From an uncultured delta proteobacterium (lineage in GTDB: Bacteria; Desulfobacterota; Desulfobacteria; Desulfobacterales; JAFDCJ01), in contig CAVYNY010000035.1 in NCBI GenBank assembly GCA_963769935.1, forward strand, positions 147,676-211,675: 64,000 nucleotides of DNA, given 5' to 3'. Below are positions 506 through 57,778 of the stretch, one piece after another (the first letter of the stretch is position 1; every line of letters starts with the position of its first letter). The notes beneath the pieces were generated by a model. It was given only the letters and a program-made list of their open reading frames with translations. It was not told where the DNA came from and ran no database searches. The position numbers were made by a program, and so were the translations under genes.

Positions 506-902
506 GCTCTCAAGGCCACTCCAATTTGGGGTGGTTCACTTCATTAAGTAACAAATATTGCGATATGCAATGCGCTGACTTGTGTTTGTCGCGCCCGAAT
601 GCATCGTAAGGCTGGAAACGCGGAAAGTTCTAAAGAATTTCACCATTTTACCGATAATAAACCTGAATTGCTACTAACATGGAGGCAATAAAGAATCAAG
701 TCCTAACAGAATAAATATTAAAAAAATCAGATAGTTAATAAATTTTATTTTTCAAATGAATTTTCAAAGGCCTCTTAATTCAAAAAACAAACTGATTTGG
801 CTTCAGTTTGTATATTTTAAAGGAAGATTTACCTTTTGCCATTCATATTTGCTAATAATTAGCCGGACTATATTTCTGTTTTCGAGGGAATCCCGACAGT
901 AA

Positions 903-16597: not shown

Positions 16598-19500
16598 ATG
16601 TCATCCATTGTGCAACATGCCCCGCGGTTCAGCGCCGAAGACGCCGTCCGGGTTGCCGAAGAATTATTTGGAATCGATGTTACTGCCGGCCGGCTGCCCA
16701 GTGAGCGGGATCAAAATTTTCATCTGGCTGCCTCCGGCGGGCCGGAATATGTGCTCAAACTGGCCAACTCCACCGAACTGCCGGAAGTGCTCGATTTCCA
16801 GAATAAGGCCATGCTGCACATTGCCGCCCAGCGGGATTTATTCGACCCGATCACATCGGTTGTGCCCGTCGTGTGCGCGACAAAAAAAGGCGAGCAGATT
16901 ACTTCAATCCAGGGCCCCGACGGGACCCGTCATTTTGTGCGCCTGTTAACCTACCTGCCGGGCCGGCCGCTGGCGCTCGTTCGGCCCCATGATGCCCATT
17001 TATTGGCCAGCCTGGGAAGATTCTTCGGCAATATCGATCGTGCCCTGCAGGATTTTGACCATGCGGCCGCCCATCGCGATTTTCACTGGGATCTTAAAAA
17101 TGCCGGCCGCATAATACCGCGCTACCTTGATCTCATCGGAAGTCCGGCCGACCGGGATCTGGTCAAGGGTCTGTACGAGCGCTATCAGACGGCCGTCGAA
17201 CCACAGCTGCCGGATCTGCGGCGCGGGGTGATTCACAGCGATGCCAATGACTACAACGTGCTGGTGGAAGCGGACGGCAAATGGCAGCATCAGGTGACCG
17301 GCGTGATCGATTTCGGTGATATGGTTTACACCCAGACCGTCAATGAAGTCGCGATTGCCTGTGCCTATGCCATGCTGGACAAGGCCGATCCCCTGGCGGC
17401 CGCCAAATCAATTGTCGGCGGCTACCATCAAGTTTATCCGCTGGCCGAACCGGAACTGGCGGTTTTATTTGATTTGATCCGCATGCGCCTGTGCATGAGT
17501 GTCTGCCATTGCGCCCATCAATCCCACCAGGAACCGGAGAATCAATACCTGCGCATTTCGGAAAAGCCGGCCTGGGCCCTTCTTCGGAGGTTGGCGGACA
17601 TTCATCCGCGCCTGGCCGGCTATATGTTTCGTAATGCCTGCGGTTTGCCGCCGGTGCCGCAGCATGGTAGGATCGTTGCCTGGCTGAAAAAAGATCCCCT
17701 GCGCTGCGGCAAAGTTGTCGATGAAGACCTGCGAGCTGAAAAACAGCTGGTGCTGGATCTGAGTGTGGGCAGTCTGCTGTTGGGCGGCGACGGCCACGGC
17801 GCCGACATGGCGGCTGTTACGGATAAACTCTTCGGCCAAATGCGGGTCGCCCATGCCGCTGTCGGCATCGGACGCTACAATGAGGCCAGGCTGGTTTATA
17901 CGACCGAGCAGTTCAAAACCCAGACCGACGAAATAGCGGAACATCGGACGATCCATCTGGGAATTGATCTATACAAGCGCAGCGGCGAGCCGGTTTATGC
18001 CCCCTTCGACGGCAGCGTCCACAGCATCCAAAATAATACGGCGCCGCTTGACTACGGGCCCACCATTATTCTTGAGCACCAAACCGACGAGGACGATCGC
18101 TTTTATACCCTTTACGGCCATCTGAGTCCGGATTCGCTGAATGGGCTTGAAATCGGTCTGCCGATTGAAAAGGGTCGGCAAATCGCCCGGATCGGGGAGC
18201 CGAAGAGCAACGGGGGATGGCCGCCGCATCTGCATTTTCAGATTATACTGGACATGCTGGATGAGAACGGCAATTTCCCCGGCGTCGCCCGGCCGAGTGA
18301 ACGTGATATCTGGCTGGGCATCTCCCCCGATCCCAATCTCGTGCTGGGCATTCCAGAAAGCTGTTTTCCCTCCGGCGGCCGGAGCAATGCTGAAATTCTA
18401 ACACTGCGCCGCCGGATGCTGGGCCGCAACCTGAGCATCTCCTATAAAAATCCCTTAAAGATCGTAAGGGGCCGGGGACAGTATCTTTACACCGAAGACG
18501 GCTGGACATATCTGGATGGTGTCAATAATGTGTGCCATGTGGGTCACTGTCATCCCCATGTCGTCCGGGCGGCTCAGCTCCAGATGCCGGTTCTCAACAC
18601 CAATACGCGCTATCTGCACGACACCATTATCGAATATGCCCGTCGTCTGCTGGCAAAATTCCCGCAACCATTGGAGGTTTGCTATTTTGTCTGTTCCGGC
18701 AGCGAAGCCAATGAGCTGGCGCTGCGCCTGGCCCGCACCTATACCGGACGGCAGGACATTATCATGGTGGACGGCGCCTACCACGGTAACACCCAGGCTT
18801 TGATCGATATCAGTCCTTACAAGCATGATGGTTCCGGGGGGCGCGGGGCTCCGGCCTGGGCGCACAAAGTCCCCAGTCCCGACGGCTACCGGGGACCCCA
18901 CAAGGGCCGCGGCCCGGAGACCGGTATCCGCTATGCGGCCTATGTCAACGATGCGGTTCAACGGAGTCGGGTCGCGGGGCCGGGGCCGGCCGCCTTTATT
19001 TGTGAGAGTATGCTGGGCTGTGCCGGTCAGGTGGTGCTGCCGGACAACTACCTGGCTGAAGCATTCAAGCCTGTGCGGGCAGCGGGCGGGGTTTGCATCG
19101 TCGATGAGGTGCAGGTGGGTTTCGGGCGTGCCGGCACTCATTTCTGGGCCTTTGAAACCCAGGCCGTGGTGCCCGATATCGTGACGCTGGGCAAGCCGAT
19201 GGGCAACGGACATCCGCTGGCGGCCGTCATTACGACGACTGCCATTGCCGATGCCTTTGACAACGGTATGGAGTATTTTAATACTTTCGGCGGCAATCCG
19301 GTATCCTGTGCCGTCGGTATGGCCGTGCTGGACGTCATTGAAAATGAAGGATTGCAGCAAAATGCCTGCCGGGCCGGCAAGCGTCTGCTGAGCGGCCTGC
19401 GGGAATTGAAGCAAAAATATCCGCTCATCGGTGATGTGCGCGGTTTGGGTCTGTATGTCGGCGTTGAACTGGTTGTAAACCGCGGGACGTTGGATCCCGC

Positions 19501-19684
19501 TGCCGAACAGGCCGACTATATTATCAATCGCATGCGCGACCACGGCATATTGATCAGCACCGACGGTCCGCTGGAGAATGTGCTGAAAATAAAACCCCCG
19601 CTCGTTTTCAGTGAGCAAAACGCGGATGAGATTGTCGCCACGCTGGATAAAGTGCTGGGGGAGGACTGTCTGAAGGTCTGTTGA
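16598..19684 (+). CDS. Three-domain fusion: APH-like kinase, M23-like domain, class III aminotransferase (hydroxylysine kinase/phospho-lyase-like)
   Basis: [22 protein letters not shown] (kinase); HLGID...YGHL...PHLHFQ (M23-like); [33 protein letters not shown] (aminotransferase III). Confidence 0.92.
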
Positions 19685-30375: not shown

Positions 30376-30515
30376 AATTGAAGATTGGAGATTGCAAATT
30401 GAATATTTGTGGATGTCACTCGCGTAGCGCAGGCGCCGCGTGTCGCTCCGTCTTTTTTAAAATATAATCCGCCGCGGACCATAAATATTCAATATTCATT
30501 CGAAACTATTCAATC
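30376..30515. mobile_element. MITE-like element family B (ATTGAAGATTG.../...AATATTCAAT ends)
   Basis: Inverted heptamer-array ends and an internal TGTCGCT motif; related copies at 42737, 50321, 51286 and a partial copy at 40166. Confidence 0.6.
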
Positions 30516-31986: not shown

Positions 31987-33018
31987 CTAAACCTGAATTG
32001 GATAATTGCAATACTTCTTGTGAGTTTCCATCATCGCGATGTAATTCTCCGGTTTCACGGCTGAATGGATGCTGTTGCCGGATGAAAAAATATAGCCGCC
32101 GCCGGGTCCGGCTATCCGGATGCACTCTTTTGACTCGGCAATCGTTTGCTCGACACTGCCGAAGGTGAGCGTTTGGGCGCAATCGACATTGCCTTTGATC
32201 GCAATCCGTCGGCCGTATCTGGTTTTAATTTCAGCTAAATCCATGCCCGCTGTAGGATCGATAGGATCCAGGCAATCGATGCCCGCGTCGACAATCATAT
32301 CGATCAGGGGCATGATTTCCCCGTCGGTATGTTTGATGATGTACAGACCGCGATCTTTATACCCTCCCATGACTTTGCAAAGCGGCGGGAAGAATAGTTT
32401 TTTGAAATGGGCGGGCGAAACCATCGGGCCGTGCTTGTGGGCAAAGTCATCGCCGGTGTAAATAATTTTAACGCCTCTTTTGACGGCTTCATCGGCCATT
32501 TTCAGATTGACCGCGACACACATTTCAATGAGGCCTTCGATCAGTTGCGGGTCCTGGATGAGGGTCATCAGAAAGTGTTCAAAACCCATCAATCGGCTCG
32601 GTATTGAAAACACATCGTTCAGGTGCAGAATAACGGCTTTTTTGCCTCGATGCGCTTTAAGCTCGGATTCCAGCGTTAAATATCGCTCCGGTGCGTGGGG
32701 ATCGGGCGGCTCATATTTATCCAGATCCCGCCTGGTTTTTATCGGCCCGTCAACCGGATAGGTGTGGGACTCCCCGGTATCCTTTTTGACAATGCCCCAC
32801 TCATCCCGGTAAACATGGGGTTCGAGTTCTTCACTTTGATAGTCCAAATCAACACAGATGGCATCCTGGTCGGCTTTGTAGACAAATTCCTGATAGCTCA
32901 AGCCGGGATAAATGGCCTCGATGACCTTTTTATCCACAAACCATTCAAAGGTCGGTATGCGATCGACCGCTTCTCGCCGCAGCGTTTTCAGGATTCTTTC
33001 CTCTGAAGTCATTGTCAT
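31987..33018 (-). CDS. Uroporphyrinogen decarboxylase-like (URO-D/MtaA-CmuA superfamily) protein
   Basis: VDRIP, DEWG, GDDFA, KHTDG, KGNVD, GGGYIFSSGNSIH, PEN. Confidence 0.85.
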   Translation of the reverse strand: MTMTSEERILKTLRREAVDRIPTFEWFVDKKVIEAIYPGLSYQEFVYKADQDAICVDLDYQSEELEPHVYRDEWGIVKKDTGESHTYPVDGPIKTRRDLDKYEPPDPHAPERYLTLESELKAHRGKKAVILHLNDVFSIPSRLMGFEHFLMTLIQDPQLIEGLIEMCVAVNLKMADEAVKRGVKIIYTGDDFAHKHGPMVSPAHFKKLFFPPLCKVMGGYKDRGLYIIKHTDGEIMPLIDMIVDAGIDCLDPIDPTAGMDLAEIKTRYGRRIAIKGNVDCAQTLTFGSVEQTIAESKECIRIAGPGGGYIFSSGNSIHSAVKPENYIAMMETHKKYCNYPIQV

Positions 33019-33031
33019 AATTGGGCGCTCC

Positions 33032-34579
33032 TTATGATTTGAACCTGTCAAAGATGTCATGATTCACTTCTTTGAGGCTCGGCTGCAGCTTTTTAAAAAT
33101 CCGGTAATAGTCCTCATATTCATTCTGTCGATTGAGATTCGGCTCATAGATCCGGCCTTCTTTGTAAGTTTGTTGAAACGCATCCTGTTCGTCCTGGTAG
33201 AGACCCAGGCCGATGCCGGCCAGCAGCGCGGCCCCCAATGTCGTTGCCTCTTCCAGGGCGGGTACCTCAATGACTTTTCCGGTTACATCGGCTTTGTTTT
33301 GCATCCACAACTGATTGCGCACGGCGCCCCCGACCGCAATGATCTTTTGAATGCGGCCCGGCAACGCTCTTTCAAAGGAAAACAAAATGTCTTTAAATTG
33401 GTAGTCCAGACCTTCAACAATCGCCCGCAGCATGCAGCCCTTATCGGCTGCGGGGCTCAATCCGATGAAGGCACCCAGCGAGCGGCTGTCGATATCCGGC
33501 GTTCCAGCACCCGCCAGGTGGGGCAGAAAAAAAACACCGTTGGACCCGCAGGGCGCTTTAGCCGCCTTTTCCATCAAAGACTCCCAGTCCCGTTTGCCGG
33601 TCCTGTTTTCAATCTCTTTTTCTTCGAAACCGTAATTGTCCCTGAACCATTCCAGCATCAAGGCCGAAGGCGAATATCCTGCGAGCAGATAGGCCTTTTG
33701 GGCGACATGGGCTTCGACGTTGATCCCGGCTTCAAAGATTTCCTTTTCAAGAACGAGCCGGGGCAGGGTACGAATAATAATTTCCCAGGTTCCGGTGACA
33801 TCCATGATGACATCCGGAACAAAAGCCCCGACAGCCAGGCCGGCGCAGATATAGTCGTGACCGCCCAGAACAACCGGGGTTCCCGCCTTCAAGCCGATTT
33901 TATCGGCAGCTTTTTGGGTGACGCCCCCTAAAACCGTCCCGCTCGGCAGCGCTTGCGGGAAAAGCGCTTTGTCCAGGCCGGCACTGTCGAAGAGGGCATC
34001 AGACCAATTCAGCGTTTGCTGGTCAAACAGGGAGGTGCAGGATGCCATGGTATAATCGGTGGCCCGGCGGCCGCACAGCATGAAGTTTATGAAATCCTCT
34101 ATAAGCAGCCATTTGTCTGTTTTGGAAAGTATTTCCGGGTGATTTTCTTTCATCCAGATCAGCCGATACAGGGTGTCGATGTGCAGCACCTGTTTGCCGG
34201 TGATGGAAAAGATTTTTTCCGCCCCGAATTTCCGGCTGAAAGCCCGGCTTTGCGATTCCGTGCGGGTGCATTGCCAGGAAATAAAGGGGTAGAGCCATTG
34301 ACCGTTTTGATCCAGAGGCACGCCGTCCATGCCCATACCGGTTACCGCAATCCCCTCGATATCGGCTGGGTTGCCGGTTTGATTCAACACGTTTTTTATG
34401 ACCGTGACGGTACTGTTCCAGACAACTTCCGGATCCCAGAAGGCCCAGGTCGGGTGGTCCGGGTCCAAATGCTTGACTTCGGCCGGGACGCTGTGCATGG
34501 CGGCGATGTTGCCCGCTAAATCATAGGCGACCGCTTTAATTGAGGTTGACCCTAAATCGATTCCTAGCAGATAACCCAT
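33032..34579 (-). CDS. FGGY carbohydrate kinase (xylulokinase-like)
   Basis: GIDLGSTSIK, GGHD, TGTWE, PHLAG, VGG...W, LGAALLAG. Confidence 0.92.
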   Translation of the reverse strand: MGYLLGIDLGSTSIKAVAYDLAGNIAAMHSVPAEVKHLDPDHPTWAFWDPEVVWNSTVTVIKNVLNQTGNPADIEGIAVTGMGMDGVPLDQNGQWLYPFISWQCTRTESQSRAFSRKFGAEKIFSITGKQVLHIDTLYRLIWMKENHPEILSKTDKWLLIEDFINFMLCGRRATDYTMASCTSLFDQQTLNWSDALFDSAGLDKALFPQALPSGTVLGGVTQKAADKIGLKAGTPVVLGGHDYICAGLAVGAFVPDVIMDVTGTWEIIIRTLPRLVLEKEIFEAGINVEAHVAQKAYLLAGYSPSALMLEWFRDNYGFEEKEIENRTGKRDWESLMEKAAKAPCGSNGVFFLPHLAGAGTPDIDSRSLGAFIGLSPAADKGCMLRAIVEGLDYQFKDILFSFERALPGRIQKIIAVGGAVRNQLWMQNKADVTGKVIEVPALEEATTLGAALLAGIGLGLYQDEQDAFQQTYKEGRIYEPNLNRQNEYEDYYRIFKKLQPSLKEVNHDIFDRFKS

Positions 34580-40373: not shown

Positions 40374-41427
40374 TTACTCTTTGATGCCATTGGTGCCGCG
40401 TCGTTTCAGGTATTTATCCCAGTAAAAGTCGTCGGCATTCTCCTTGGTGACCAGTGCCAGCCCGTTGTCGCAATAGGGGATCTGCATCGGGTTGTAGCCT
40501 TTGCGTTTGTAGTCGTTCATCGGATCGATCATATCCGAATGCTTGGCCAGGTACAAGAACATCATGCCGAAATACCCCTGCACCCCCTGGTCGGGGTTCA
40601 GCGCGCCCCAGATATCGCCTTCCTTGATCATATCCAGAACTTTCTGGTTAACATCGGTGCAAAGAATTTTGATCTTCCCGCCAAGTTCCTTGGCGGCCTG
40701 GGCCGCACCCATGGCCGAGCTGGCTTCGGGCATGAAAATTGCGCCGAGTTCGGGGTGTCCCTGGGCCATGGTCAGGGTCGCCTGATAGGCCTTGTTGGCA
40801 TCCTGGTTGGAAGCGGCGGTGGCAACGACCTTGATGCCCGGCCACTTGGTTTCAATGCGTTTGGTAAATGACTTGACCCGCAGGTCATGATTGTCCTGGC
40901 CGGGGTTTTGGAGGGTCGCCACTTCGCCCTTGCCCCCTAAGTAGTTCCCCTACTTTGTCGGCCGCAAAGTAGCCTTCGCGAACGTTGTCGGAAGTGATAT
41001 AAGATACGCGTTTGCTGTTCGGGGAGTCCGCGGCAAACGTGACCACGGGAATACCCATTTCATAGGCCCGGTTAATGGGTTCAATGAAAGGATCCGGGTT
41101 CATGGGATGCAGGAATATACCGGCCGGCTTTTTGGCCAGGATTTGCTCGAACACGGCCAGTTGTTTATTGACGTCATATTCCGCTGTGCCGGTGTAGACG
41201 GTTTTTACTCCCAGCTGCCAGCCGGCCTGCTTGAACATTTCATAAACCGGAAACCAGTACTCCACGCCCGAAACCATCACACACATGTAATAGGTTTCGT
41301 TCGGATCTCCCTTAAAGGGGTTCTTTGCACGCCAGAATTTTTCCAGCGATGACTGTCCTGCCAGGGTTGCACCTGCGGTGAGAATCATCAGGGAAACGAT
41401 CAGCATTGCTATTACTATTCTTTTCAT
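40374..41427 (-). CDS. Sugar ABC substrate-binding protein, one frameshift at ~40935
   Basis: The two ORFs join into a full paralog of 30928-31956 (…GKGEVATLQNPGQDNHD…). The indel is at or next to a G run. Confidence 0.88.
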
Positions 41428-42736: not shown

Positions 42737-42858
42737 ATTGAAGATTGAAGATTTGTAGTTGTCGCTTCGCTCCGTCACCTTTTAGATAAATCTTTATAAA
42801 ATCGACCCGCCGCAGGCGGACATTAAATATTCAATTTACAATCTTCAATTTTCAATTC
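42737..42858. mobile_element. MITE-like element family B copy
   Basis: GATTGAAGATTGAAGATTTG...AAATATTCAATTTACAATCTTCAATTTTCAAT. Confidence 0.6.
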
Positions 42859-48186: not shown

Positions 48187-48975
48187 ATGGGAAACAACTA
48201 TATCATACCTAGTCTGGACCGAGCGCTCGAGATCATTGGATTTCTGGCAAAGCAGCCCAAGGGGTGCGGCATTACGACCATTGCGGATAAATTGGGGTAT
48301 CCCAAGAACAGCGTATTCCGTATCTTAAGGACCCTGGCCAACAAAGGGTATATTATTGAAGCCGATCGGCTGTATCAGCTTTCCGCCAAATTTCTTGCTG
48401 TCGGCTATTCCGCGGTAGGTGAAGCACACATGGTGGAAAAGGCGATCGATGTTATGCGGGAACTCAGAGATGAAGTCAACGAGACCGTCCTGCTCGGCAC
48501 TCTCGTCGGCAACAGGGGCGTCATATTGGAACAGGTTCTCAGCACGCAGCCACTGAAGGTGATGGTCGATCCGGGCCATAATTTCGCGCTGCACACGGCC
48601 GCGCCCAGCAAAGCCATGCTGGCCTATATGAACCCGGAAGACCAGAACAAAATTATTGATTCGATCACTTATACCCGCTTTAACGAGAACACGATAATTA
48701 CCAAAGGACAGTTTGTAAAAAATTTAAAAGAGGTCAGGGAGAAAGGTTACGCAACCGATCTGGCGGAAGAAATCATCAACCTGCACTGCGTGGCCTGCCC
48801 GATTTTTAATCATAAACTGGAACCGATTGCTTCGATTTGGATCACCGGACCCTCCGACCGATTGCAGCCGGAGCGTTTTGATGAGTTCGGCGGTATTATC
48901 GGGGAATTCGCGCTGAAGATTTCACGACGCTTGGGCTATGAGCCGGAATTAAACGGGCACAGCGCCTATAAATGA
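48187..48975 (+). CDS. IclR family transcriptional regulator
   Basis: SLDRALEII...YPKNSVFRILRTL; HTAAPSKAMLA, GYATD..E, CVACPI. Confidence 0.95.
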   Translation: MGNNYIIPSLDRALEIIGFLAKQPKGCGITTIADKLGYPKNSVFRILRTLANKGYIIEADRLYQLSAKFLAVGYSAVGEAHMVEKAIDVMRELRDEVNETVLLGTLVGNRGVILEQVLSTQPLKVMVDPGHNFALHTAAPSKAMLAYMNPEDQNKIIDSITYTRFNENTIITKGQFVKNLKEVREKGYATDLAEEIINLHCVACPIFNHKLEPIASIWITGPSDRLQPERFDEFGGIIGEFALKISRRLGYEPELNGHSAYK

Positions 48976-49442: not shown

Positions 49443-50291
49443 TTATCCCAGCTGGCTCAGCAGCTTGTCAAGCTCCCGCTCGTCGAGACTGTAGCTGTGC
49501 TGTTCGGTGGGAAACTGACCCGATTCAACCTCGTTGCGAAATTGGGTTATGGCCGAAACGGTGACCTGCTGCAGATCGGCGTAGACTTTCAGAAACCGGG
49601 GCGACAGCTCCTTGAACAGGCCCAACATGTCATGGGTCACCAGGCCCTGTCCATCGCAGTGCACGCCGGAGCCGATGCTGATGACGGGAATTTCCAGGCT
49701 GCGGGTGATTATTTCACCCAGGCTCACGGGCAGGCACTCGATGATCAGCCCAAAGGCCCCGCTTTTGGCCATGGCCAGGGCATCGTTGATCATTTGTTTT
49801 GAAGATTCGGCATCCTTGGCCGGCAGGCTGATTTTGCCGGAAAGCACAATCCGCTGTTTGGTGACCCCGATGTGGCCCAACACGGGAATGCCCGATTCTA
49901 CGATGCCGCGGACAATCTCGGCCGAGCGGGCGGTTCCTTCCAGGTGGACGGCATCCGCCCGGCCCTCCTTCATGATGCGGGCGGCGTTGCCGACCGCTTC
50001 GCTGACGCCGTTGTATGAACCGAACGGCAGGGTCGTCACAACCAGGGCGGATTTGACGCCGTTTCTTACCGCCCGGGTGTGGTAGGTCATTTCATCGATT
50101 GTGACCGAAACCGCTTCGGGACGGCCGTTGCCGATGGTTCCCACCGCATCACTCACCAGGACAATGTCGATTCCAGCCTGGTCCAGAAACGAAGCCATTG
50201 GATAGTCATAAGCCGTGAGGAGCGTTATTTTCCGGTTGCTCCTTTTTTTGCTTTGAAGCGCTGCGACGGTCATTTTAGGACGGGTATTCAT
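49443..50291 (-). CDS. Ketopantoate hydroxymethyltransferase (PanB)-like protein with a divergent active site
   Basis: LTAYDY, GHIG, IECLP, ISIGSG..CDGQ.LV.HDMLG. Has LVSDAVG (vs LVGDSLG), VTTLPF (vs ADLPF) and VHLEG (vs VKIEG). Confidence 0.85.
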   Translation of the reverse strand: MNTRPKMTVAALQSKKRSNRKITLLTAYDYPMASFLDQAGIDIVLVSDAVGTIGNGRPEAVSVTIDEMTYHTRAVRNGVKSALVVTTLPFGSYNGVSEAVGNAARIMKEGRADAVHLEGTARSAEIVRGIVESGIPVLGHIGVTKQRIVLSGKISLPAKDAESSKQMINDALAMAKSGAFGLIIECLPVSLGEIITRSLEIPVISIGSGVHCDGQGLVTHDMLGLFKELSPRFLKVYADLQQVTVSAITQFRNEVESGQFPTEQHSYSLDERELDKLLSQLG

Positions 50292-50320
50292 TGGATGTTC
50301 CTCGGCCGGCCAAGCCGGCA

Positions 50321-50521
50321 TTGAAAATTGAAGATTGTAAACTGAATATTTGTGGCTGTCGCCCCCGCAGCGCCAGCGCTTGCGTGGCGTGTGCGCCGCA
50401 TGTCGCTCCATCCTTAGCAGAAGGGGATCGTATCCTCTCCGAGCCGTAGGATTTACGAGCCGGAGGCTTAAATATTCAATACCTGTTCGCCTCCGGAGGA
50501 TTCAATCGACAATATTCAATC
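50321..50521. mobile_element. MITE-like element family B copy inside the BMC operon
   Basis: ATTGAAAATTGAAGATTGTAAACTGAATATTTG...AATATTCAAT. Confidence 0.6.
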
Positions 50522-50567
50522 ATTTAAAGATGAAGAAAATATTACTTACCGAATTTGCGAATCTATA

Positions 50568-50903
50568 TTAGACAATAATTTTGGGCAGCAGATCCTCCAC
50601 CATCAGATTGGGGTTCGGCAGCATTTTGACCGACTCGACTTCGCCGACCAGTTTGGCCGCCTTGGCCCCGGCCTCCAGAGCGGTGCGCACCGCTCCCACA
50701 TCGCCCCTCACCATGATCGTCATGTAGCCGCCGCCGATGGCACACCGCTGCGTCAAGACGATATTGGCCGCTTTGGCCATTGCATCCGCCGCCTCGATAC
50801 ATGCCACCAAACCTTTGGTCTCAATCATTCCCAGAGCCCTCATTTCAGGGTCAAGGGCGCCAGCCGCCTGCGAGTTTTGATTTTCCATAATCTTTTTAGC
50901 CAT
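50568..50903 (-). CDS. BMC-H hexameric shell protein
   Basis: ALGMIETKGLVACIEAADAMAKAANI...IGGGYMTIMVRGDVGAV. Confidence 0.95.
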   Translation of the reverse strand: MAKKIMENQNSQAAGALDPEMRALGMIETKGLVACIEAADAMAKAANIVLTQRCAIGGGYMTIMVRGDVGAVRTALEAGAKAAKLVGEVESVKMLPNPNLMVEDLLPKIIV

Positions 50904-50906
50904 GAT

Positions 50907-51197
50907 TTATTCCTTTCTGTAACGTATTTTATCATCGTATTGAAGCGAGTCTAATATGCCGACAATCGCGGCATCAACCGGCGAGTTCTTGTAATCCGTG
51001 GCCAGGCGGGCTGAGCTTCCCCGGCTGACCATGACCAGTTCACCCGGCCCCGAACCGACCAGGTCAACAGCCAGCAAAGGATCTCCGCTGATGTCCCCAT
51101 CGATATTGGTCGGGCAGATAATTAATATTTTTGTAGAGCTCAGCGCCGCATGTTTGACGGTTGCCACTGCCGTGCCCATAACCTTAGCGATTATCAT
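50907..51197 (-). CDS. BMC-P vertex protein (EutN/CcmL family)
   Basis: MIIAKVMGTAVATVKH...AVDLVGSGPGELV...GSSAR...PVDAAIVGILD. Confidence 0.95.
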   Translation of the reverse strand: MIIAKVMGTAVATVKHAALSSTKILIICPTNIDGDISGDPLLAVDLVGSGPGELVMVSRGSSARLATDYKNSPVDAAIVGILDSLQYDDKIRYRKE

Positions 51198-51285
51198 GGA
51201 TGACCTCATTTCATATGTTACGGTTAGTTTTAATTTCTACCAGTTAATGTTTGCTTACCCTAACTCGGAGCCACAGAGGGCGTAG

Positions 51286-51396
51286 AATTGAAAATTGAAG
51301 ATTGTAAATTGAATATTTGCGGATGTCGCTTGGCGCCGTTCATTTTAACCGGAAAGAATACCTTAAATATTCAATATTCAATCGAAAATATTCAAT
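51286..51396. mobile_element. MITE-like element family B copy inside the BMC operon
   Basis: AATTGAAAATTGAAGATTGTAAATTGAATATTTG...AAATATTCAATATTCAATCGAAAATATTCAATT. Confidence 0.6.
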
Positions 51397-51459
51397 TGTT
51401 ACAAGTTGGCGATCATGTTCAAGTACAATTTCTTTGGTACAAATTTTATTTCAAGGATC

Positions 51460-51801
51460 CTACTGGTTCTTGATGCGCTTAATCCTTTCGACCAGCTTAT
51501 CTACGACCGGCCGGGATTGGGTGGCCGGCTTGCCGGACGCCGCTGCTGTTCTCGCTGCCGGCCGTCTCTGGCATCCCCTGGGTTTGCCGCTGAACGTGTG
51601 TACTCTGCCGACGGATTGGGGACGCGCAGGATTGAATGTCTCCATCGATGCGCCGGACGCTCTTTCCGTTATGCGCAGGCCCAGCATGGCAGCGGTCTGC
51701 TTTGCCAGGTCCGTCAGCACGACGTTTTTATCAACGCAGATCTCACTTTGGCCCTGATCGGCAAAATTTTCAATGTCTTCAGCCGAATAAAAAGTCTTCA
51801 T
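51460..51801 (-). CDS. BMC-associated protein: EutQ-N-terminus-like domain, linker, putative encapsulation peptide
   Basis: FYSAEDIE...ICVDKNVVLTDLAKQTAAMLGLRITE resembles the EutQ N-domain; A/P/R/S-rich linker; terminal amphipathic helix VVDKLVERIKRIK. Confidence 0.65.
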   Translation of the reverse strand: MKTFYSAEDIENFADQGQSEICVDKNVVLTDLAKQTAAMLGLRITERASGASMETFNPARPQSVGRVHTFSGKPRGCQRRPAARTAAASGKPATQSRPVVDKLVERIKRIKNQ

Positions 51802-51834
51802 TTCAAGCGATCTCCTTTGTCCGCCTCCGGCGGA

Positions 51835-52434
51835 TTAAATGCCCTTTATGGCTTGCACAGCCGCTTCGCGGCCGACCATCACCTCCGAGTCGCTGCCGGC
51901 GATATACAACCGTCCATAGCGTCCGGAAGGCTGATAGTTTACCAGGGTGATGTTGGCCGCCTTTTCCGCTTCGTTGGCCGCCAGCCAGACATAGGCCGCC
52001 GGCGCAATTTCCAGGACGCACAGCGTCTGGCCTGCCAGCAGCAAACCGCCGCGGCTGGTCTGGTTTACCAGCTGAGCTTCGTACGGGTTTACCTTGGAGA
52101 CCATTTTAACGGAGACAACCTCCGGCTTTATGCGGTCGCGCTCAGTCAGGCCAAAACGCCCCAGAGCATTTTGCCCGGCGACCTGAACCGCCTCCTGAAA
52201 GGCGCTGTGAATCTCAAGTGTGCCGTACTCTCTTTCAACCCGCAACAGGCCGGGGCGCACGTCCGCAGTTTTCAAAGCGGTGTCCAGAACCTCGTATACG
52301 TCGCCGGCAGGTGCCAATTCCATAAATACTTCCGCCATGCCTTCCACCGGCACATCGCCCTGCAGCAGGATGCCGGTGAGGGCGGCAAATTGCGGTTGCA
52401 TCGAATCTATCAGAATGTAGGTTCTAAGCTCCAT
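51835..52434 (-). CDS. BMC-T shell protein, double-stacking CcmP/CsoS1D type
   Basis: MELRTYILIDSMQPQFAA...ELAP...VEREYG.LEIH...LEIAPAAY...ANEAEKAA...GRYGRLY. Confidence 0.9.
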   Translation of the reverse strand: MELRTYILIDSMQPQFAALTGILLQGDVPVEGMAEVFMELAPAGDVYEVLDTALKTADVRPGLLRVEREYGTLEIHSAFQEAVQVAGQNALGRFGLTERDRIKPEVVSVKMVSKVNPYEAQLVNQTSRGGLLLAGQTLCVLEIAPAAYVWLAANEAEKAANITLVNYQPSGRYGRLYIAGSDSEVMVGREAAVQAIKGI

Positions 52435-52472
52435 TTTACATTTCCTTTGCAATGTTTCTTTAAGCCGTTGAA

Positions 52473-52793
52473 TTAATCTGCCAATGACCGGACCACCTTG
52501 CGGTCCCCATTGGGAATGATTGCCTCGGTAAATCGGTGCGGCCGCGCAATGACGTGGCCCGCGATCAATTGACCTGCCTTTTTTGCGGCCGCCACGCCGG
52601 CATCGACCGACGCCTGGACGGCACCGACTTCGCCGCGCACCATAATGGTCACGTATCCGCCTCCGATTTCCTCCCGGCAGGTGATACTGACATTGGCGAC
52701 TTTGGCCATTGCATCCGCCGCCTCGATGGAGGCAACCAGCCCGACGGTTTCGACCATGCCAAGTGCAGTTTTTTGCAAATGCTGTTTTTCCAT
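52473..52793 (-). CDS. BMC-H hexameric shell protein
   Basis: ALGMVETVGLVASIEAADAMAKVANV...IGGGYVTIMVRGEVGAV...HVIARPH. Confidence 0.96.
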   Translation of the reverse strand: MEKQHLQKTALGMVETVGLVASIEAADAMAKVANVSITCREEIGGGYVTIMVRGEVGAVQASVDAGVAAAKKAGQLIAGHVIARPHRFTEAIIPNGDRKVVRSLAD

Positions 52794-52977
52794 AACGATT
52801 CTCCTGTTTGTTGGGTTGCTTGGTTGTAAAACTGAAATTTGGGTAACACTTTAAATGCCTGGAAAAGCCACGGAATGGCCGAATATTCACGAAATTAATT
52901 TTTCATTTTAAGGTTCCCTGCTTTTATCCATTGCAATTATTCGTGGTTATTCGTGTAAATTCGTGGCTTACTATTCA

Positions 52978-54051
52978 TTAAATTCCGAGTATCTGGTTGG
53001 CCGCAGCGATACCCGAATTTAAATCGACCCTGTGCCCGAGCCCGGCCAGCGCATTGCCGGCTGCCGTCAATAGCTGAATAACCTTGCCGGAAGAAAATTC
53101 CGAGATCTGGGCCGGGTCGAGATAGAAGGCGCTGTGATCGACTTGGCCGAAGGCTTTGCTCGGCCCGAAAATCCGCTCGATTCCTTTTACGAGGTCGTTG
53201 ACATTGATGCCCTCGGGGGCAAAAATGGCCGTGCTGGTTCCTTGGCAAAATTTTCCGGGGGCATCACAGCCGGGACAATCGGCGCCATCGTTGGTCAGCA
53301 GCAAATCCATCTCGCTGACACCCCAGCGGACCGCTTTGGCGGCCGTCTCGTAGTCGGAAGCATCCGTTTTGCGCGCGGCAGAACCCGGCCGGGGTGCGCC
53401 CCACAGGCGGGCGATCGTCGAACGGATGGCCATGGCCGCTGCGACCGGGTCTTTGGCTGCGTGAATCGCACGCCCGGTAATAAGGGCAGTGACCGGAAGG
53501 CTTTGAAAAAATGGAATGGACTCAAGGGTTATCCCGCCGGTGACCGTAACTTTGTACCCCATGTCGATCAAGCGCTGAATGGTGTCCAAATCGTTTTGAG
53601 ACCACTGGCGGTTGGAGGCCTCCTCGTCCCAACCGCGATGGTATACCATCCATTCGATCCCGACCTGCCGCCATTCCTTGGCGCGGGCGATAATGTCCCG
53701 CACGCCGGTAAGTTCCATCAGCACCGCTTTGCCATATTCATTGGCGGTTTTCAGGGCGGATTCGACGGTGGCCATGGGGGCGCCGCCAATAACCGTCATC
53801 AGGTCCGCTCCGGACTCAAAGGCCATCTTGGCTTCCAGCCAGCCGACGTCGGGCGTTTTAAAGTCGGCCAGAATCAGGTTGTCCGGACAAACCTCGCGCA
53901 CGGCTCTGATGGCGTCCAGCCCGGCGGCCTTGCAAAGGGGGGTGCCGATTTCAAAAATGTCGACGTGCGGCGCCGTTTTGGAGGCTATGGCGATGGCCGG
54001 GGGCAGGGTGATGAAGTCTAACGCAAATTGTAACATTGGAATTGTGCTCAT
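52978..54051 (-). CDS. KGPDC/HPS-family (OMP decarboxylase fold) enzyme fused to an extra ~125-aa C-terminal domain
   Basis: LQFALD, EIGTPL, ADFKTPD (DxKxxD), ELTG, YHRG, VTVTGG, GRAI, ending RLWG as in UlaD/SgbH. A linker follows, then a domain resembling the class V aminotransferase small domain, with CPGC-x6-C. Confidence 0.88.
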   Translation of the reverse strand: MSTIPMLQFALDFITLPPAIAIASKTAPHVDIFEIGTPLCKAAGLDAIRAVREVCPDNLILADFKTPDVGWLEAKMAFESGADLMTVIGGAPMATVESALKTANEYGKAVLMELTGVRDIIARAKEWRQVGIEWMVYHRGWDEEASNRQWSQNDLDTIQRLIDMGYKVTVTGGITLESIPFFQSLPVTALITGRAIHAAKDPVAAAMAIRSTIARLWGAPRPGSAARKTDASDYETAAKAVRWGVSEMDLLLTNDGADCPGCDAPGKFCQGTSTAIFAPEGINVNDLVKGIERIFGPSKAFGQVDHSAFYLDPAQISEFSSGKVIQLLTAAGNALAGLGHRVDLNSGIAAANQILGI

Positions 54052-54088
54052 TTCACGATATCCTTTATGCTGATTGTGGTTGTTGTCC

Positions 54089-54961
54089 TTAAAGCTGCAT
54101 CCCAATGGGATTGTAATAGGTCCTGAGCGCAGCGGCGGTTGCTTCCAGGTTGCGCTTCAGAGGCCGGCCCAGTTTGAACAAAACTCCCAGATACAATAAA
54201 TCCACCAAGTACAGTTGGCACACCTTGGCGTCGATGGCCCCGCCGTACAGCGGCGTGTCCCTGTATTCGAGGGGTGTGGCCAGGCATATTTCGGCCGTCC
54301 GGGCCAGGGCGGATTCGCGATCACTGGTCAGGGCGATGGTTGTGGCGCCGTTTTTAGCGGCAATCTTAACGGCATCGACCACATGTTTGGTAATGCCGGT
54401 GTTGGAGACGCCGAAAGCCACCATTTTGGGTTTGATCATGGACGCCGAAACGGTCTGCATATAGCCGTCGGCGTAGATCACACAGTTGAGGCCGGCTTTG
54501 GTAAACAGGTGATGGGCGGCGTGAGCAATGATGGCCGAGCCGCCGATGCCGTAAATATAGATTTGCCCGGCACGGGCAATGGCGTCGATGGCGTTGTTCA
54601 TGTCTTCGACATTCAGACTTTGCTGGGTCTTAGCGATGGAGCCGGACAGGGATTCGGACAGCTTGCGGCCGATTTCGGGCGTGGCGTCGCCTTCATGAAT
54701 GGCCGGCGGTATGTTTTTAAATTCATCCACCGGACTTGAAGATGCGGCCATCGATAGTTTGAGGTCCTGAAATCCCTGGAGGCCGATGACCCTGCAAAAG
54801 CGGCTGACCGTTGTTTCGCTGACCTTCAATCTTTTGGCCAATTCCGTTATTGAAAAATCAAGCCGTTCCTGGGCGTGCTGCTGCAGATAGTCCGCAATTT
54901 TTTTCTCTGATTTCCTCAAAATCGAATAATTGGCCTGAAGATGTTGAACGAAATTGTTCAT
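54089..54961 (-). CDS. RpiR/MurR family transcriptional regulator (HTH plus SIS)
   Basis: LRKSEKKIADY...SITELA...VSETTVSRFCR.IG..GFQDLK; YGIGGS, SNTG.T. Confidence 0.95.
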   Translation of the reverse strand: MNNFVQHLQANYSILRKSEKKIADYLQQHAQERLDFSITELAKRLKVSETTVSRFCRVIGLQGFQDLKLSMAASSSPVDEFKNIPPAIHEGDATPEIGRKLSESLSGSIAKTQQSLNVEDMNNAIDAIARAGQIYIYGIGGSAIIAHAAHHLFTKAGLNCVIYADGYMQTVSASMIKPKMVAFGVSNTGITKHVVDAVKIAAKNGATTIALTSDRESALARTAEICLATPLEYRDTPLYGGAIDAKVCQLYLVDLLYLGVLFKLGRPLKRNLEATAAALRTYYNPIGMQL

Positions 54962-55005
54962 AATAATAAGGAAATATTTTTCATAAATAGTAAAAAATAA
55001 AATAA

Positions 55006-55051
55006 TGTAAAAAATTTTTTCCATAATAGACGAGTAAAAACGGACTGTCAA
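55006..55051 (-). promoter_or_regulatory. sigma70 promoter of the BMC operon plus a near-perfect palindromic operator
   Basis: Minus-strand TTGACA (55051-55046)-N17-TATTAT (55028-55023); TGTAAAAAATTTTTTCCA (55006-55023) directly downstream. Confidence 0.65.
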
Positions 55052-55474
55052 GAAAAATTTTCACCAAATTTTCAGGGATGCGGGAAAAAATATTGAATCT
55101 GAGAATAGGGGTTAAGTTATTGAAATTGAATCTAATGGTGACGAGGGAGAATTCGTGGAATTTGAATTTTGAGTTTTTGCCGGAAAAATTATTCGAGACT
55201 ATCCAAAAAGTATAATTATATAGCCGAACTGCCGATAAAATAATGTTCTCAGCACTATTTGGCGGGCAATCCTGCAGATTTCCATACCCGGGTCGGTATA
55301 GTCGTATAAAATGTCAAGATCTTTTTAGGCTGGGCATAAAATTAATTCAATATGAGATCCTGTTCGCCTGAATTAATTAAATTTCATAAAATAGCTGGAA
55401 AGGGCCGGGCAATTCAGCTAATAATACCATGGTCGGCCTTCGGGCATTTTTTTTTGAGAGGTGAAAGGTTTCCA

Positions 55475-57778
55475 GTGATCAAAAAACTGATAATTTTTTG
55501 CGCCGCAATCTTTTTTATGGCTTGTCTTGGCGCGTTTTTCTATGGCTGGTATCTTGCCGGCCAGGTTGATGCACGATTTTCATCGCGCCGTTGGAGCATA
55601 CCGTCCAAAGTTTATTCAGATACAATGCTGCTGTATCCGGGGCAGCGAATAAACCGACAGCTGCTTAAAGAGAAGCTCAGCCGGATGGGGTACCGGGAAG
55701 TCCCCCGCCGTACGGAAAGAAAAGGGGAAATCCATACAGCTCAAAACGGATTGAGCCTGTTGCTATTTCTTAACGACCTCAACACTCCCTGGCAGAAAAG
55801 GCCGGGATTTCCTGTGAAAATCGAATTTAAAGAAAATACAATCGAATCCATCATGCGGGAAGATGACGGCGCCTCCGTGCCGCTGCTGGAAATTGAACCT
55901 GAAGAAATCAGCCTTTTCTTCGGCCGCGAGCGGGAGCGTCGTCAGCTGGTTGCGATTAAACAGGTCCCGGAGCACGTCATGCATGCCGTCTTAGCCGCCG
56001 AGGATCGCCGTTTTTTTAGCCACTGGGGGGTTGATCCGCGTGGAATTCTGCGAGCGTTGATAACCAACCTGAGGCATGGCAGCATTCGACAAGGCGGCTC
56101 AACCATAACGCAGCAAGTGGCCAAAAACTATTTTCTGACACCGGACAGAAATCTGACGCGCAAGCTCAAGGAAGTGGTGTTGGCTTTCACAATGGAATGG
56201 AAGTACACCAAAGAGGAAATTCTGGAGATCTACCTGAACGAAATTTACCTGGGTCAGAAAGGCTCCGTTGCGATCAACGGCATCGGCGAAGCTGCCGAAT
56301 TTTACTTCGGCAAATCGGTGCCGGAATTATCGCTCGCCGAGGCGGCCGCCATTGCCGGGCTTATCAAAGCTCCCAACAAATATTCGCCCTATGTCGATAA
56401 AGAGGCCTGCCGGTCTCGTCGCAATTTGGTTTTAACTATCATGCAGCGCCAGGGATGGATATCTGACCCGGTGCTGCAGGCCCAGCTAAAGGCTCCGGTC
56501 GAAACGGTCGGCTACAATGTATACGGCAAAAAAGCGCCTTACTATATCGATTACCTGACGCAGCAGCTGGAAGCGCTCTATAAACCTGAAGATCTGGCTG
56601 CGCTCGGACTCTCTATCTACACCACACTTGACTCCCAGGTTCAAATGGCTGCCGAAAAAGCGCTCACAGAAGGCTTACAGCGCCTGGAAAATAAAATTCC
56701 TTCCCTGAAACACAATGCATCCGATCAAAGCTTGCAGGGCGCGGTGGTTGTCATGCAGCCGAAAACCGGCCACATTCTTGCAATGGTGGGCGGGCGCAAT
56801 TACAATGAAAGCCAGTTCAACCGGGTGACCCAGGCTCGCCGCCAACCCGGCAGCGCCTTTAAACCCTTTGTCTACCTGACCGCTCTGGATAAATTTACCC
56901 CCCTAAGCGTTCTTTCCAATCAACCTAAAACTTATGTGGTCGACGGCAAAGCCTGGGAACCGAAAAATTTTGAACCGGCTGCGAAACCACAGGTAACACT
57001 TAGAGAAGCCATTGAAAACTCATACAACCTGGCCACGGTTGACCTGGCCATGCAGATCGGCCTGGACCCTATTATCGAAACGGCAACGCGCTTCGGCTTT
57101 TCAACCTCACTTGAACCCTATCCTTCGCTGGTGCTCGGCGCATTCGAGGTGATACCCTTGGAACTGGCACGGGCCTATTGCGTATTTGCAGCCGAAGGTA
57201 TGATGACGTTCCCGCTGGCTCTGAAAGCCGTCACCGATGAAAACGGCAAGGTGCTCGAGCAGCGCTATTTAAAAGTTGAACGTTTGATATCAGGCGCTAA
57301 AGCCTATATGATGAACTCGCTGCTGCAAGGTGTGATTGAGAACGGAACGGGCCGCTCGCTGAAAACGTTTGGAATCAACTGGCCGGTTGCCGGCAAGACC
57401 GGAACCAGCAATAATTACCGGGATGCCTGGTTCATAGGATACACTCCGGACATACTTGCCCTGGTTTGGGTGGGTTTTGACAACGGGGATTCGATCAAGG
57501 CCGCCGGTGCCGCAGCAGCGCTTCCCATCTGGGCGGAACTCATGAATGCGATTCCCCACTATATTTCCGAGAACAATTTCAGGGTGCCGGACGGCGTCGT
57601 AAAAAGGCTTGTCTGCACCGAAGACGGCAAGGCGTCGGTCTCAAAGAATTGCCCCCAGCCTTATGAAGAGTACTTTCTGGCTGAAAATGCGCCCCCGGAA
57701 TCCACCCGTTCCGGCGTCAAACCGGGGATTTTAGACCAACTGATCAAGGGTATCAAAGGGTTGTTCCAAAGGGATTGA
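55475..57778 (+). CDS. mrcB: Class A penicillin-binding protein 1B (UB2H, transglycosylase, transpeptidase)
   Basis: AEDRRFFSHWGVD, QGGSTITQQ, RKLKE, YLNEIYLGQ; GSAFKP, SYN, KTG; UB2H-like insert after the TM helix. Confidence 0.92.
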   Translation: MIKKLIIFCAAIFFMACLGAFFYGWYLAGQVDARFSSRRWSIPSKVYSDTMLLYPGQRINRQLLKEKLSRMGYREVPRRTERKGEIHTAQNGLSLLLFLNDLNTPWQKRPGFPVKIEFKENTIESIMREDDGASVPLLEIEPEEISLFFGRERERRQLVAIKQVPEHVMHAVLAAEDRRFFSHWGVDPRGILRALITNLRHGSIRQGGSTITQQVAKNYFLTPDRNLTRKLKEVVLAFTMEWKYTKEEILEIYLNEIYLGQKGSVAINGIGEAAEFYFGKSVPELSLAEAAAIAGLIKAPNKYSPYVDKEACRSRRNLVLTIMQRQGWISDPVLQAQLKAPVETVGYNVYGKKAPYYIDYLTQQLEALYKPEDLAALGLSIYTTLDSQVQMAAEKALTEGLQRLENKIPSLKHNASDQSLQGAVVVMQPKTGHILAMVGGRNYNESQFNRVTQARRQPGSAFKPFVYLTALDKFTPLSVLSNQPKTYVVDGKAWEPKNFEPAAKPQVTLREAIENSYNLATVDLAMQIGLDPIIETATRFGFSTSLEPYPSLVLGAFEVIPLELARAYCVFAAEGMMTFPLALKAVTDENGKVLEQRYLKVERLISGAKAYMMNSLLQGVIENGTGRSLKTFGINWPVAGKTGTSNNYRDAWFIGYTPDILALVWVGFDNGDSIKAAGAAAALPIWAELMNAIPHYISENNFRVPDGVVKRLVCTEDGKASVSKNCPQPYEEYFLAENAPPESTRSGVKPGILDQLIKGIKGLFQRD

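Follow-up and report, generated by a model that had tools for sequence, protein, structure and literature searches.

A 64,000-nucleotide stretch from an uncultured delta proteobacterium of the Desulfobacterales (contig CAVYNY010000035.1), here called the window and numbered throughout from its first letter, carries a compact set of bacterial microcompartment (BMC) genes. Searches with Pfam and NCBIfam confirmed eight genes on the minus strand within 49443-55051, each where the first-pass annotation of this DNA had placed it. Downstream of a sigma-70-like promoter site (55023-55051; TTGACA-17-TATTAT, 11/12, a consensus match only) lies the gene for an RpiR-family regulator with HTH_6 and SIS domains (54089-54961, within an open reading frame (ORF) extending to 55051; PF01418, E 3.5e-22; PF01380, E 4.1e-18). 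It is followed by the gene for a 357-residue OMPdecase-family protein, P0001 (52978-54051; PF00215, E 2.7e-32), which belongs to the group formed by KGPDC (the decarboxylase of 3-keto-L-gulonate 6-phosphate) and HPS (hexulose-phosphate synthase). Next come a first shell hexamer protein, BMC-H (52473-52793; PF00936, E 2.5e-24; PDB homologues PduA, EutM and CsoS1), a tandem-domain, CcmP-like BMC-T of the double-stacking type (51835-52434; NCBIfam CcmP model, E 9.7e-63), a 113-residue adaptor-like protein, P0002 (51460-51801), the pentameric vertex protein BMC-P (50907-51209; PF03319, E 2.9e-26; PDB homologues EutN/CcmL) and a second BMC-H (50568-50903; PF00936, E 3.2e-24). The last gene encodes a PanB-like protein, a divergent member of the ketopantoate hydroxymethyltransferase family (49443-50291; PF02548, E 4e-91). 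Three ORF starts given earlier (55051, 54105 and 50411) lie upstream of the likely starts, which are 54961 (the ATG of rpiR), 54051 and 50291; GAGGAA is found 7 nt upstream of the panB-like ATG.

The catalytic barrel of P0001 (residues 1-218, 53398-54051; PF00215) aligned to the last residue of Escherichia coli KGPDC (1kv8, E 1.5e-49) with no notable gaps. The KGPDC model NF009832 was its best NCBIfam match (209.9 bits, cut-off 250), NF009831 gave 207.7 bits (cut-off 294), and the HPS model TIGR03128 gave 180.3 bits, again under its cut-off of 200. Comparison with solved structures ranked the two families in the same way (172 bits for KGPDC versus 143.5 for HPS; HPS 3ajx, E 7.4e-41). In E. coli KGPDC numbering the barrel retains E33, D62, K64, D67, E112, H136 and T169, and tryptophan replaces R139. 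The same catalytic-residue pattern was present in 76 of 76 relatives, with tryptophan at position 139 throughout and T169 changed to alanine in ten. KGPDC and HPS reportedly have one enediolate intermediate in common, each being promiscuous for the reaction of the other (as Wise 2005 and Yew 2005 are said to describe), and KGPDC variants carrying E112D, R139V and T169A are said to have been made to raise the HPS side activity. Such variants are present in the PDB (1xbx, 1xby), and their Asp/Val/Ala at 112/139/169 presumably mimic HPS; the barrel has Glu/Trp/Thr at these positions. By its residues and scores, the enzyme forms a third branch within the KGPDC/HPS group and stands nearer to KGPDC. 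The family first assigned to it, KGPDC/HPS-like, therefore stands, with the refinement that it resembles KGPDC more than HPS at two of the three discriminating positions.

Beyond a variable linker, P0001 carries a conserved C-terminal domain of about 120 residues (residues ~236-357, 52981-53346), in which C42, C45 and C52 of a CPGC...C loop were invariant among 55 aligned sequences. An AlphaFold2 (AF2) model of this domain had a mean pLDDT of 78.2 and a pTM of 0.72, the cysteine loop being of low confidence. In a Foldseek search the model superposed on class V aminotransferases at their C-terminal small domain (2z9u, E 6e-6, TMq 0.66); nine more hits had E values of 3e-4 or lower. NCBIfam weakly matched residues 296-383 of BhcA, in agreement with this fold. 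The part of such enzymes that binds pyridoxal phosphate is missing. Pfam contained no family for this domain or for the small protein P0002, even at E up to 10, and the Protein Atlas gave no usable match for the domain. Homologues of the domain on its own numbered 67 (77-245 aa), mostly pieces from short contigs, and among them no fusion to another enzyme was seen, longer fusions being outside the search. The domain was present only where shell genes follow (72 fused versus 8 unfused loci, described below). From the model and its distribution, it may act as a module that recruits or clusters the enzyme. By the AF2 and Foldseek results, the C-terminal part is a folded domain and not a simple encapsulation peptide.

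The shell genes comprise two BMC-H, one BMC-T and one BMC-P, and the Pfam matches bear out the earlier statement that the set is complete in H, T and P. The BMC-T scored 211.6 bits against the NCBIfam CcmP model, under its cut-off of 340, and its nearest solved relatives were CcmP (4ht5, E 2e-51) and HO-5816 of H. ochraceum (E 7.5e-50); the BMC-P matched the CcmL model. The NCBIfam shell models are mainly those of carboxysomes and the Eut system, and nearness to the carboxysome therefore weighs little. Neither an aldehyde dehydrogenase (AldDH; PF00171) nor PduL (PF06130) was present among the 46 window ORFs that were scanned (10 + 36), the 17 unscanned members of the 60-ORF list all being shorter than 150 aa. 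This agrees with the annotation of the window as free of both enzymes. The same 46 ORFs included no RuBisCO, carbonic anhydrase, CcmM/CcmN or CsoS2. In 80 related loci, scanned for at most 10 kb to either side where the contigs reach that far, AldDH and PduL were not conserved: no Aldedh or PTAC domain was found among 57 representatives of conserved clusters, and among 103 singleton ORFs of suitable length Aldedh occurred once, in locus L006 alone, and PTAC not at all.

The small protein P0002 belongs to a family (35 aligned sequences) whose members have about 50 conserved residues at the head, a linker rich in Pro, Ala and Ser that bears an invariant cysteine in a KPxGCQ motif, and a terminal helix with the pattern VVDxLVxxVK. 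In the AF2 model of P0002 the head is confident (pLDDT ~90, residues 1-46) and is followed by a disordered stretch and, at 98-111, a helix. Of the 35 members, 22 matched the EutQ model over its first 60 positions (best E 5.3e-6; window protein E 0.0014) and 11 matched TIGR02536; Pfam found no cupin domain (PF06249) in the small protein. In the available text of a study of Salmonella EutQ, the N-terminus bridges shell and cargo, with H1/H2 at the EutM/EutL interface and H3/H4 on cargo peptides (PMC12487888). By analogy, P0002 is plausibly a free-standing version of this N-terminal bridge, an adaptor between shell and cargo, and the scaffold role first proposed for it gains plausibility from the EutQ-like head, the linker and the terminal helix. 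Invariant cysteines are found in the CPGC...C loop at residues 259-269 of P0001 and in the KPxGCQ motif at residue 77 of P0002; the two proteins might conceivably share a metal or redox site.

The PanB-like protein passed the equivalog cut-off of TIGR00222 (277.7 versus 207.55 bits) and aligned end to end with five solved PanBs. In this alignment, against which the numbering was checked, at the positions of D45, D84, K112 and E114 of E. coli PanB, which we take to be the Mg and oxoacid ligands, it has D48, T87, H116 and E118. T87 and H116 were conserved at a level of at least 90% in 46 shell-linked PanB-like sequences. In the family at large, the combination D, D, K, E was present in 137 of the 150 best representatives; Thr together with His was found in only three of the 150, all fragments of the shell-linked clade, and one more truncated fragment had the Thr only. 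Thus the proposed PanB-like cargo belongs to the named family and is not a standard PanB, since D84 is changed to Thr and K112 to His. PanB chemistry moves a hydroxymethyl unit, at the oxidation level of formaldehyde, onto an enolate. A 15-residue tail that follows EHSY (ELxKLLxQ, 46/46; missing in the five solved PanBs) was considered as an encapsulation peptide and rejected. Tails of 13-30 residues in a similar style occur in 47 of 139 PanB family representatives, and for this reason the tail was dropped as evidence of targeting.

P0001 had 788 relatives in the protein collection. Among the best 120 of these, identity was 58-97% and 118 covered at least 94% of the query, the other two being 273-aa pieces. 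Scanning a collection with one genome per species yielded 171 candidate stretches, of which 126 encode a P0001 relative and 80 were kept as loci (L001-L080). The whole of P0001, including the C-terminal domain, was matched in 72 loci, and 61 of these extend for at least 3.3 kb downstream and are thus informative for the genes that follow. Within these 61, BMC-T and two or more BMC-H were present in all, BMC-P in 60 (the exception being L064) and PanB in 59 (the exceptions being L064 and L066). The small protein was detected in 57 by tblastn and in L053 and L068 by clustering, and was not seen in L060 and L064. The gene order was identical in the related loci, and the shell-linked panB-like gene often begins only 20-50 bp past the last shell gene. 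Recurrence in 59-61 of 61 loci places the arrangement far beyond chance and answers the earlier suggestion that synteny of both enzymes with shell genes be looked for.

L001-L005 come from records titled as delta proteobacteria or Desulfobacterales (83-87% identity), and nearly all others from Chloroflexota, mostly Anaerolineae. The upstream regulator is RpiR in L001-L005 and of the SorC type instead in the loci titled Chloroflexota. In a quick tree of the barrel (SH-aLRT support, midpoint root), the six Desulfobacterales-type rows fell into a single clade (support 100), nested in a group of Chloroflexota (support 91). The cassette has thus probably passed between phyla. Two records, L036 and L049, bear the titles Patescibacteria and Bacteroidota; both fall among Chloroflexota rows in the tree, their cassettes are near-identical to those of Chloroflexota neighbours (for example L034 versus L036), and the titles are probably binning errors.

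The same enzyme also occurs as a natural control. In eight loci (L073-L080) the match to P0001 ends at residue 218-236, and the available sequence showed neither a shell gene nor PanB. These shell-less loci share with the shell-linked ones the genes for SorC, lactonase, ABC transporter, a short-chain dehydrogenase/reductase (SDR), epimerase and pyruvate dehydrogenase (PDH)-like proteins, and L078 and L063 differ essentially by one inserted block. In the barrel tree the shell-less forms are interspersed with the fused ones in at least five separate positions, L077/L078 being sister to L006/L063 (support 99). Since they are scattered in this way, the shell module has been lost or gained repeatedly. 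Two genomes hold both forms side by side: in L058 (5560-6222, 8463-9542) and L061 (7155-7811, 10001-11071) an unfused and a fused KGPDC-like copy stand back to back in divergent operons, the unfused with PDH-like E1/E2 and the fused with shell genes. L060 and L064 lie on one contig about 25 kb apart, giving two cassettes in one genome; the second runs HPS-like, BMC-H, BMC-T, BMC-H and then PDH-like genes, and has no BMC-P, small protein or PanB. L059 contains a weak BMC-H-like match (764-901, minus strand, 46% identity) 9 kb upstream of its cassette, in an ORF with no Pfam match at E <=1e-15.

The genes around the cassette are those of sugar-acid catabolism. Downstream on the same strand, between 28 and 47.7 kb of the window, are an aldo-keto reductase (AKR), sugar ABC transporters, two FGGY kinases, HAD hydrolases, an MtaA-like URO-D protein, an iron-dependent alcohol dehydrogenase resembling glycerol dehydrogenase and an SMP-30 lactonase. 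When the 1301 ORFs of all loci were clustered and the cluster representatives searched with Pfam and NCBIfam, the conserved neighbours comprised SorC regulators, a double periplasmic binding protein with an ABC transporter, SDR, PDH-type E1/E2(/E3), a zinc-dependent alcohol dehydrogenase, a DeoC-family aldolase, the SMP-30 lactonase and a Ula-type phosphotransferase system (PTS; IIA, IIB, IIC-GAT, HPr, EI). A neighbouring L-ribulose-5-phosphate 3-epimerase passed TIGR00542 and an L-ribulose-5-phosphate 4-epimerase passed NF005123. A further cluster was present in L010, L011 and L064; its scanned member, beside the cassette in L064, passed the 6-phospho-3-hexuloisomerase cut-off (215 bits against 160). 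The DeoC-family genes in the flanks of eight loci scored best as ADH synthase or class I aldolase rather than deoxyribose-phosphate aldolase (DERA), and no PF02502 (RpiB) was seen in the scanned ORFs. The PDH-like E1/E2, SDR and epimerase neighbours were considered as further cargo and rejected: their termini are alike in shell-linked and shell-less loci, and they are accordingly taken as cytosolic. MtaA-like genes of the URO-D family lie close or adjacent to the cassette in L002 (11366-12472), L003, L005, L064 and the window (31987-33060), and a corrinoid-binding protein and a RACo activator near two others (L007, 237-872; L014, 2104-3834); a link to methyl or one-carbon (C1) metabolism is possible.

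In the Ula and Yia-Sgb routes of E. coli, a lactone is opened, the product is converted by redox steps to a 3-keto acid and phosphorylated by a kinase or a PTS, KGPDC removes C1, and epimerisation leads to D-xylulose 5-phosphate. Judged by its gene families, the operon would catabolise an imported sugar acid or an ascorbate-like compound in a similar manner. A hydroxymethyl-branched sugar had been put forward as a possible substrate; the neighbourhood is that of Ula/Yia-like sugar-acid catabolism, and nothing seen in it points to a branched sugar. Taken together, these observations lead us to regard the cassette, with moderate confidence, as an AldDH-less, self-contained microcompartment module within a sugar-acid catabolism operon.

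Comparison of loci with and without the shell module indicates what the compartment might do. The module adds the shell, the bridge protein, PanB and the extra enzyme domain, and the enclosed step would therefore be the one that cleaves off or adds C1. Of two putative cargo enzymes, the first would be P0001, a Mg-enediolate enzyme of the KGPDC/HPS family that removes C1 from, or adds it to, a 3-keto-hexonate or 3-hexulose 6-phosphate; cleavage would give a pentulose 5-phosphate. The enzyme would be recruited through its aminotransferase-small-domain-like C-terminal domain, and the divergent PanB-like enzyme would be the second cargo. In the mechanism that we prefer, sugar phosphates would pass through the gated BMC-T, and a one-carbon fragment at the level of formaldehyde would be released by one enzyme, trapped by the other on an enolate or on tetrahydrofolate, and so kept from the cytosol. 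A formaldehyde-level fragment is favoured because PanB moves such a unit and occurs only with the shell. We assign this mechanism a probability of roughly 0.3. Several observations weigh against it. The residues at 112 (Glu) and 169 (mostly Thr) are those of KGPDC and the neighbouring epimerases belong to the KGPDC route, which releases CO2, making CO2 a serious alternative. The same enzyme subfamily works in relatives that have neither shell nor PanB, so that the fragment is not intolerable there. No folate-linked gene is conserved in the flanks of the related loci, PanB was not found in L064 and L066, and, as the PanB tail is not specific, the sequence offers no direct sign that PanB is encapsulated.

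The CO2 alternative, which we rank nearly as likely, is a decarboxylase organelle: a 3-keto-aldonate 6-phosphate decarboxylase would work inside the shell, CO2 or an enediolate or beta-keto acid would be confined, formaldehyde would have no role, and the PanB-like enzyme would perform enolate chemistry on a 2-oxoacid, for example CO2 recapture or processing of a side product. The best matches of the barrel to KGPDC in both NCBIfam and the PDB, the KGPDC-type E112 and T169, and shell proteins closest to the carboxysomal CcmP and CcmL models are in keeping with it, as are the neighbours of Ula/Yia type (both epimerases, the Ula-type PTS, FGGY kinases, SMP-30 lactonase, AKR and SDR). However, all 76 sequences have Trp in place of R139, a member of the proton relay in KGPDC, and all KGPDC scores are under cut-off; CO2 is neither toxic nor scarce for anaerobes; the occurrence of PanB only with the shell is left unexplained; and the nearness to carboxysomes counts for little, given the make-up of the NCBIfam shell models. 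A less likely rival is an organelle that fixes formaldehyde much as a carboxysome fixes CO2, with the PanB-like enzyme in the role of carbonic anhydrase, freeing formaldehyde from methylene-tetrahydrofolate in the shell, and the HPS-like enzyme in that of RuBisCO, condensing it with pentulose 5-phosphate; C1 units of anaerobic demethylation would thereby enter sugar metabolism. That the two residues altered in the shell-linked clade are those at the D84 and K112 positions would suit such fixation, as would the hexuloisomerase beside some cassettes, the MtaA-like, corrinoid-binding and RACo genes near L002, L003, L005, L007, L014 and at 31987-33060 of the window, and a gated, CcmP-like BMC-T fit for sugar phosphates, as gating is described in the text of the shell catalogue of Sutter et al. 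(PMC8217296). Only a minority of the loci have the corrinoid genes, however, the flanks contain no conserved folate enzyme, the enzyme's shell-less relatives are found in ordinary operons for sugar acids, the HPS score is under cut-off, and Glu/Thr at 112/169 differ from the E112D/R139V/T169A variants. Least probable is that there is no dedicated organelle, the shell genes being satellites of a canonical locus elsewhere, with a housekeeping panB adjacent and neither enzyme enclosed. The PanB-like protein does pass the PanB equivalog cut-off, its tail is not BMC-specific, and in the window a 276-bp gap bearing repeats separates PanB from the shell genes; yet the shell-PanB order recurs in 59 of 61 loci, in records titled under two main phyla and often with gaps of 20-50 bp, PanB was not found in any of the eight shell-less loci, and two active-site residues are changed in the PanB-like clade. 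The cassette has H, T and P genes of its own, and the occurrence of the enzyme's C-terminal domain exactly follows that of the shell genes, beside which alone it is found; this makes the satellite alternative, named in the first-pass annotation as a possible refutation, unlikely.

The unit is flanked by the gene for PBP1B (55352-57778, plus strand) on one side and by a convergent gene for an IclR-family regulator (48187-48975, plus strand; PF01614, PF09339; BhcR model 168 bits, cut-off 350) on the other, as annotated earlier. The IclR protein possibly regulates the neighbouring sugar genes, and an IclR gene is also close to the cassette in L001 and L005. Within the unit there are gaps of 184, 250 and 276 bp, the latter two containing a short dispersed repeat; the same two gaps measure 78 and 34 bp in L001. 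One copy of the element, with direct and inverted repeats, occupies 50320-50543 between the second BMC-H gene and panB, and a second copy lies at 51287-51419 between the small-protein gene and BMC-P. The element has inverted ends. Four copies of its 33-nt head are present in the window against a chance expectation of none, those outside the unit being at 30377-30409 and 42824-42856. A terminator scan gave three sites, every one within a gene and fewer than expected by chance.

Elsewhere in the window, a single 1028-aa ORF (16598-19684, plus strand) encodes a phosphotransferase (APH) linked to a Peptidase_M23 domain and to a class III aminotransferase. The first and last of these are enzyme families of RMM-type microcompartments, but no shell gene is near this ORF. 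A periplasmic sugar-binding protein at 40374-41427 (minus strand) is present as two overlapping ORFs, each matching half of Peripla_BP_4; the split reflects a frameshift, decay to a pseudogene or an error in sequencing.

To our knowledge, an acylating aldehyde dehydrogenase accompanies the signature enzyme in every catabolic microcompartment that has been characterised by experiment. The cassette combines a full shell with a different enzyme pair, both families of which act via Mg-stabilised carbanions on one-carbon electrophiles. It is present in at least 72 loci of the one-genome-per-species collection, five of them with Desulfobacterales or delta-proteobacterium titles, the same operon occurs with and without the shell module as a built-in control, and at only ~5 kb the cassette can be expressed whole. 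It thereby gives direct access to an encapsulated chemistry that is new, to a putative cargo-recruiting domain of a new kind, derived from the small domain of an aminotransferase as a relic, and to a minimal adaptor resembling EutQ.

In the main text of the 2021 catalogue of Sutter et al., AldDH is a core enzyme of many metabolosomes, and BMCs of unknown function without it form the BUF class, BUF1-3 (PMC8217296). The cassette resembles this class in having complete shell genes and no AldDH, and as an AldDH-less BMC it is a BUF-class locus by the definition given there. The catalogue's table of hidden Markov models (Supplementary Data 6) contains neither PF00215 nor PF02548, the enzyme families of the cassette, and its main text contains none of the terms 'hexulose', 'pantoate', 'PF00215', 'PF02548' and 'decarboxylase'. 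Neither '00215' nor '02548' occurs in four text supplements, a set that does not include the type-by-type Supplementary Data 2 (68 types). The markers of buf1 (isochorismatase, UbiD, adenine deaminase) and of buf3 (PFOR, class V aminotransferase, CoA-binding) were found in no scanned ORF of the window or the loci. BUF2 is named in the catalogue text only as confined to one phylum (PMC8217296), and a match between it and the cassette is possible, the cassette being set apart from the catalogued types by main text and model table only. A literature search, whose scope lay outside the catalogue's per-type listing, returned no account of microcompartment shells with KGPDC/HPS or PanB; two papers among its hits (PMC12313526, PMC7542362) proved unrelated. 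The initial statement that no described BMC class has this combination is therefore upheld as far as the catalogue's main text and model table go, the composition of BUF2 lying beyond that comparison. At the least, the cassette is an uncharacterised BMC type whose cargo and natural controls are now defined, and its chemistry has probably not yet been described for such organelles.

Among named types, SPU, including SPU6 of Anaerolineae, shares with the cassette the sugar-phosphate context, a double-stacking BMC-T and an occurrence in Chloroflexota (PMC11585597; PMC8217296). According to the available text of the SPU study, all SPU loci contain AldDH and DERA, usually with RpiB (PMC11585597). 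The SPU signature set (DERA PF01791, RpiB PF02502 and AldDH) was not found in the cassette, and SPU is excluded on these grounds.

A close metabolic parallel is provided by the Ula and Yia-Sgb systems of E. coli (UlaD/SgbH, UlaE, UlaF), which share with the cassette a homologous decarboxylase barrel with Mg and Lys/Asp/His catalytic residues, together with neighbouring genes for a 3-epimerase and a 4-epimerase, for either a Ula-type PTS or an FGGY kinase, and for a regulator of the IclR or RpiR family. These pathways are cytosolic, whereas the cassette enzyme has Trp for R139, scores below the cut-offs and an extra domain, and is followed by shell and PanB-like genes. The archaeal Fae-Hps fusion (NF009833), which joins a formaldehyde-activating enzyme to hexulose-phosphate synthase, resembles our proposal in coupling an HPS-family barrel to a protein that handles formaldehyde and a pterin, and the barrel of P0001 matches its model (E 1.2e-33). 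Fae-Hps differs in being a fusion and not a compartment, in having Fae rather than PanB as the partner, and in using tetrahydromethanopterin as cofactor.

Among structural parallels, the first ~50 residues of the small protein match the N-terminus of EutQ, which the text of the EutQ study gives as its shell-binding region (PMC12487888). Unlike EutQ, the small protein has no cupin/acetate-kinase domain, the remainder consisting of the disordered KPxGCQ linker and one terminal helix. The beta-carboxysome (CcmK, CcmL, CcmP) is approached through the BMC-T, nearest to CcmP (E 2e-51), and the BMC-P, which matches the CcmL model; its cargo of RuBisCO, carbonic anhydrase and CcmM/N, like CsoS2, was not seen in the 46 scanned window ORFs. 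If formaldehyde is what the shell confines, the cassette would represent a third microcompartment logic beside CO2 fixation and the oxidation of aldehydes to acyl-CoA, of interest for the engineering of synthetic methylotrophy, and if the reaction runs in the assimilatory direction, it would be the formaldehyde analogue of the carboxysome.

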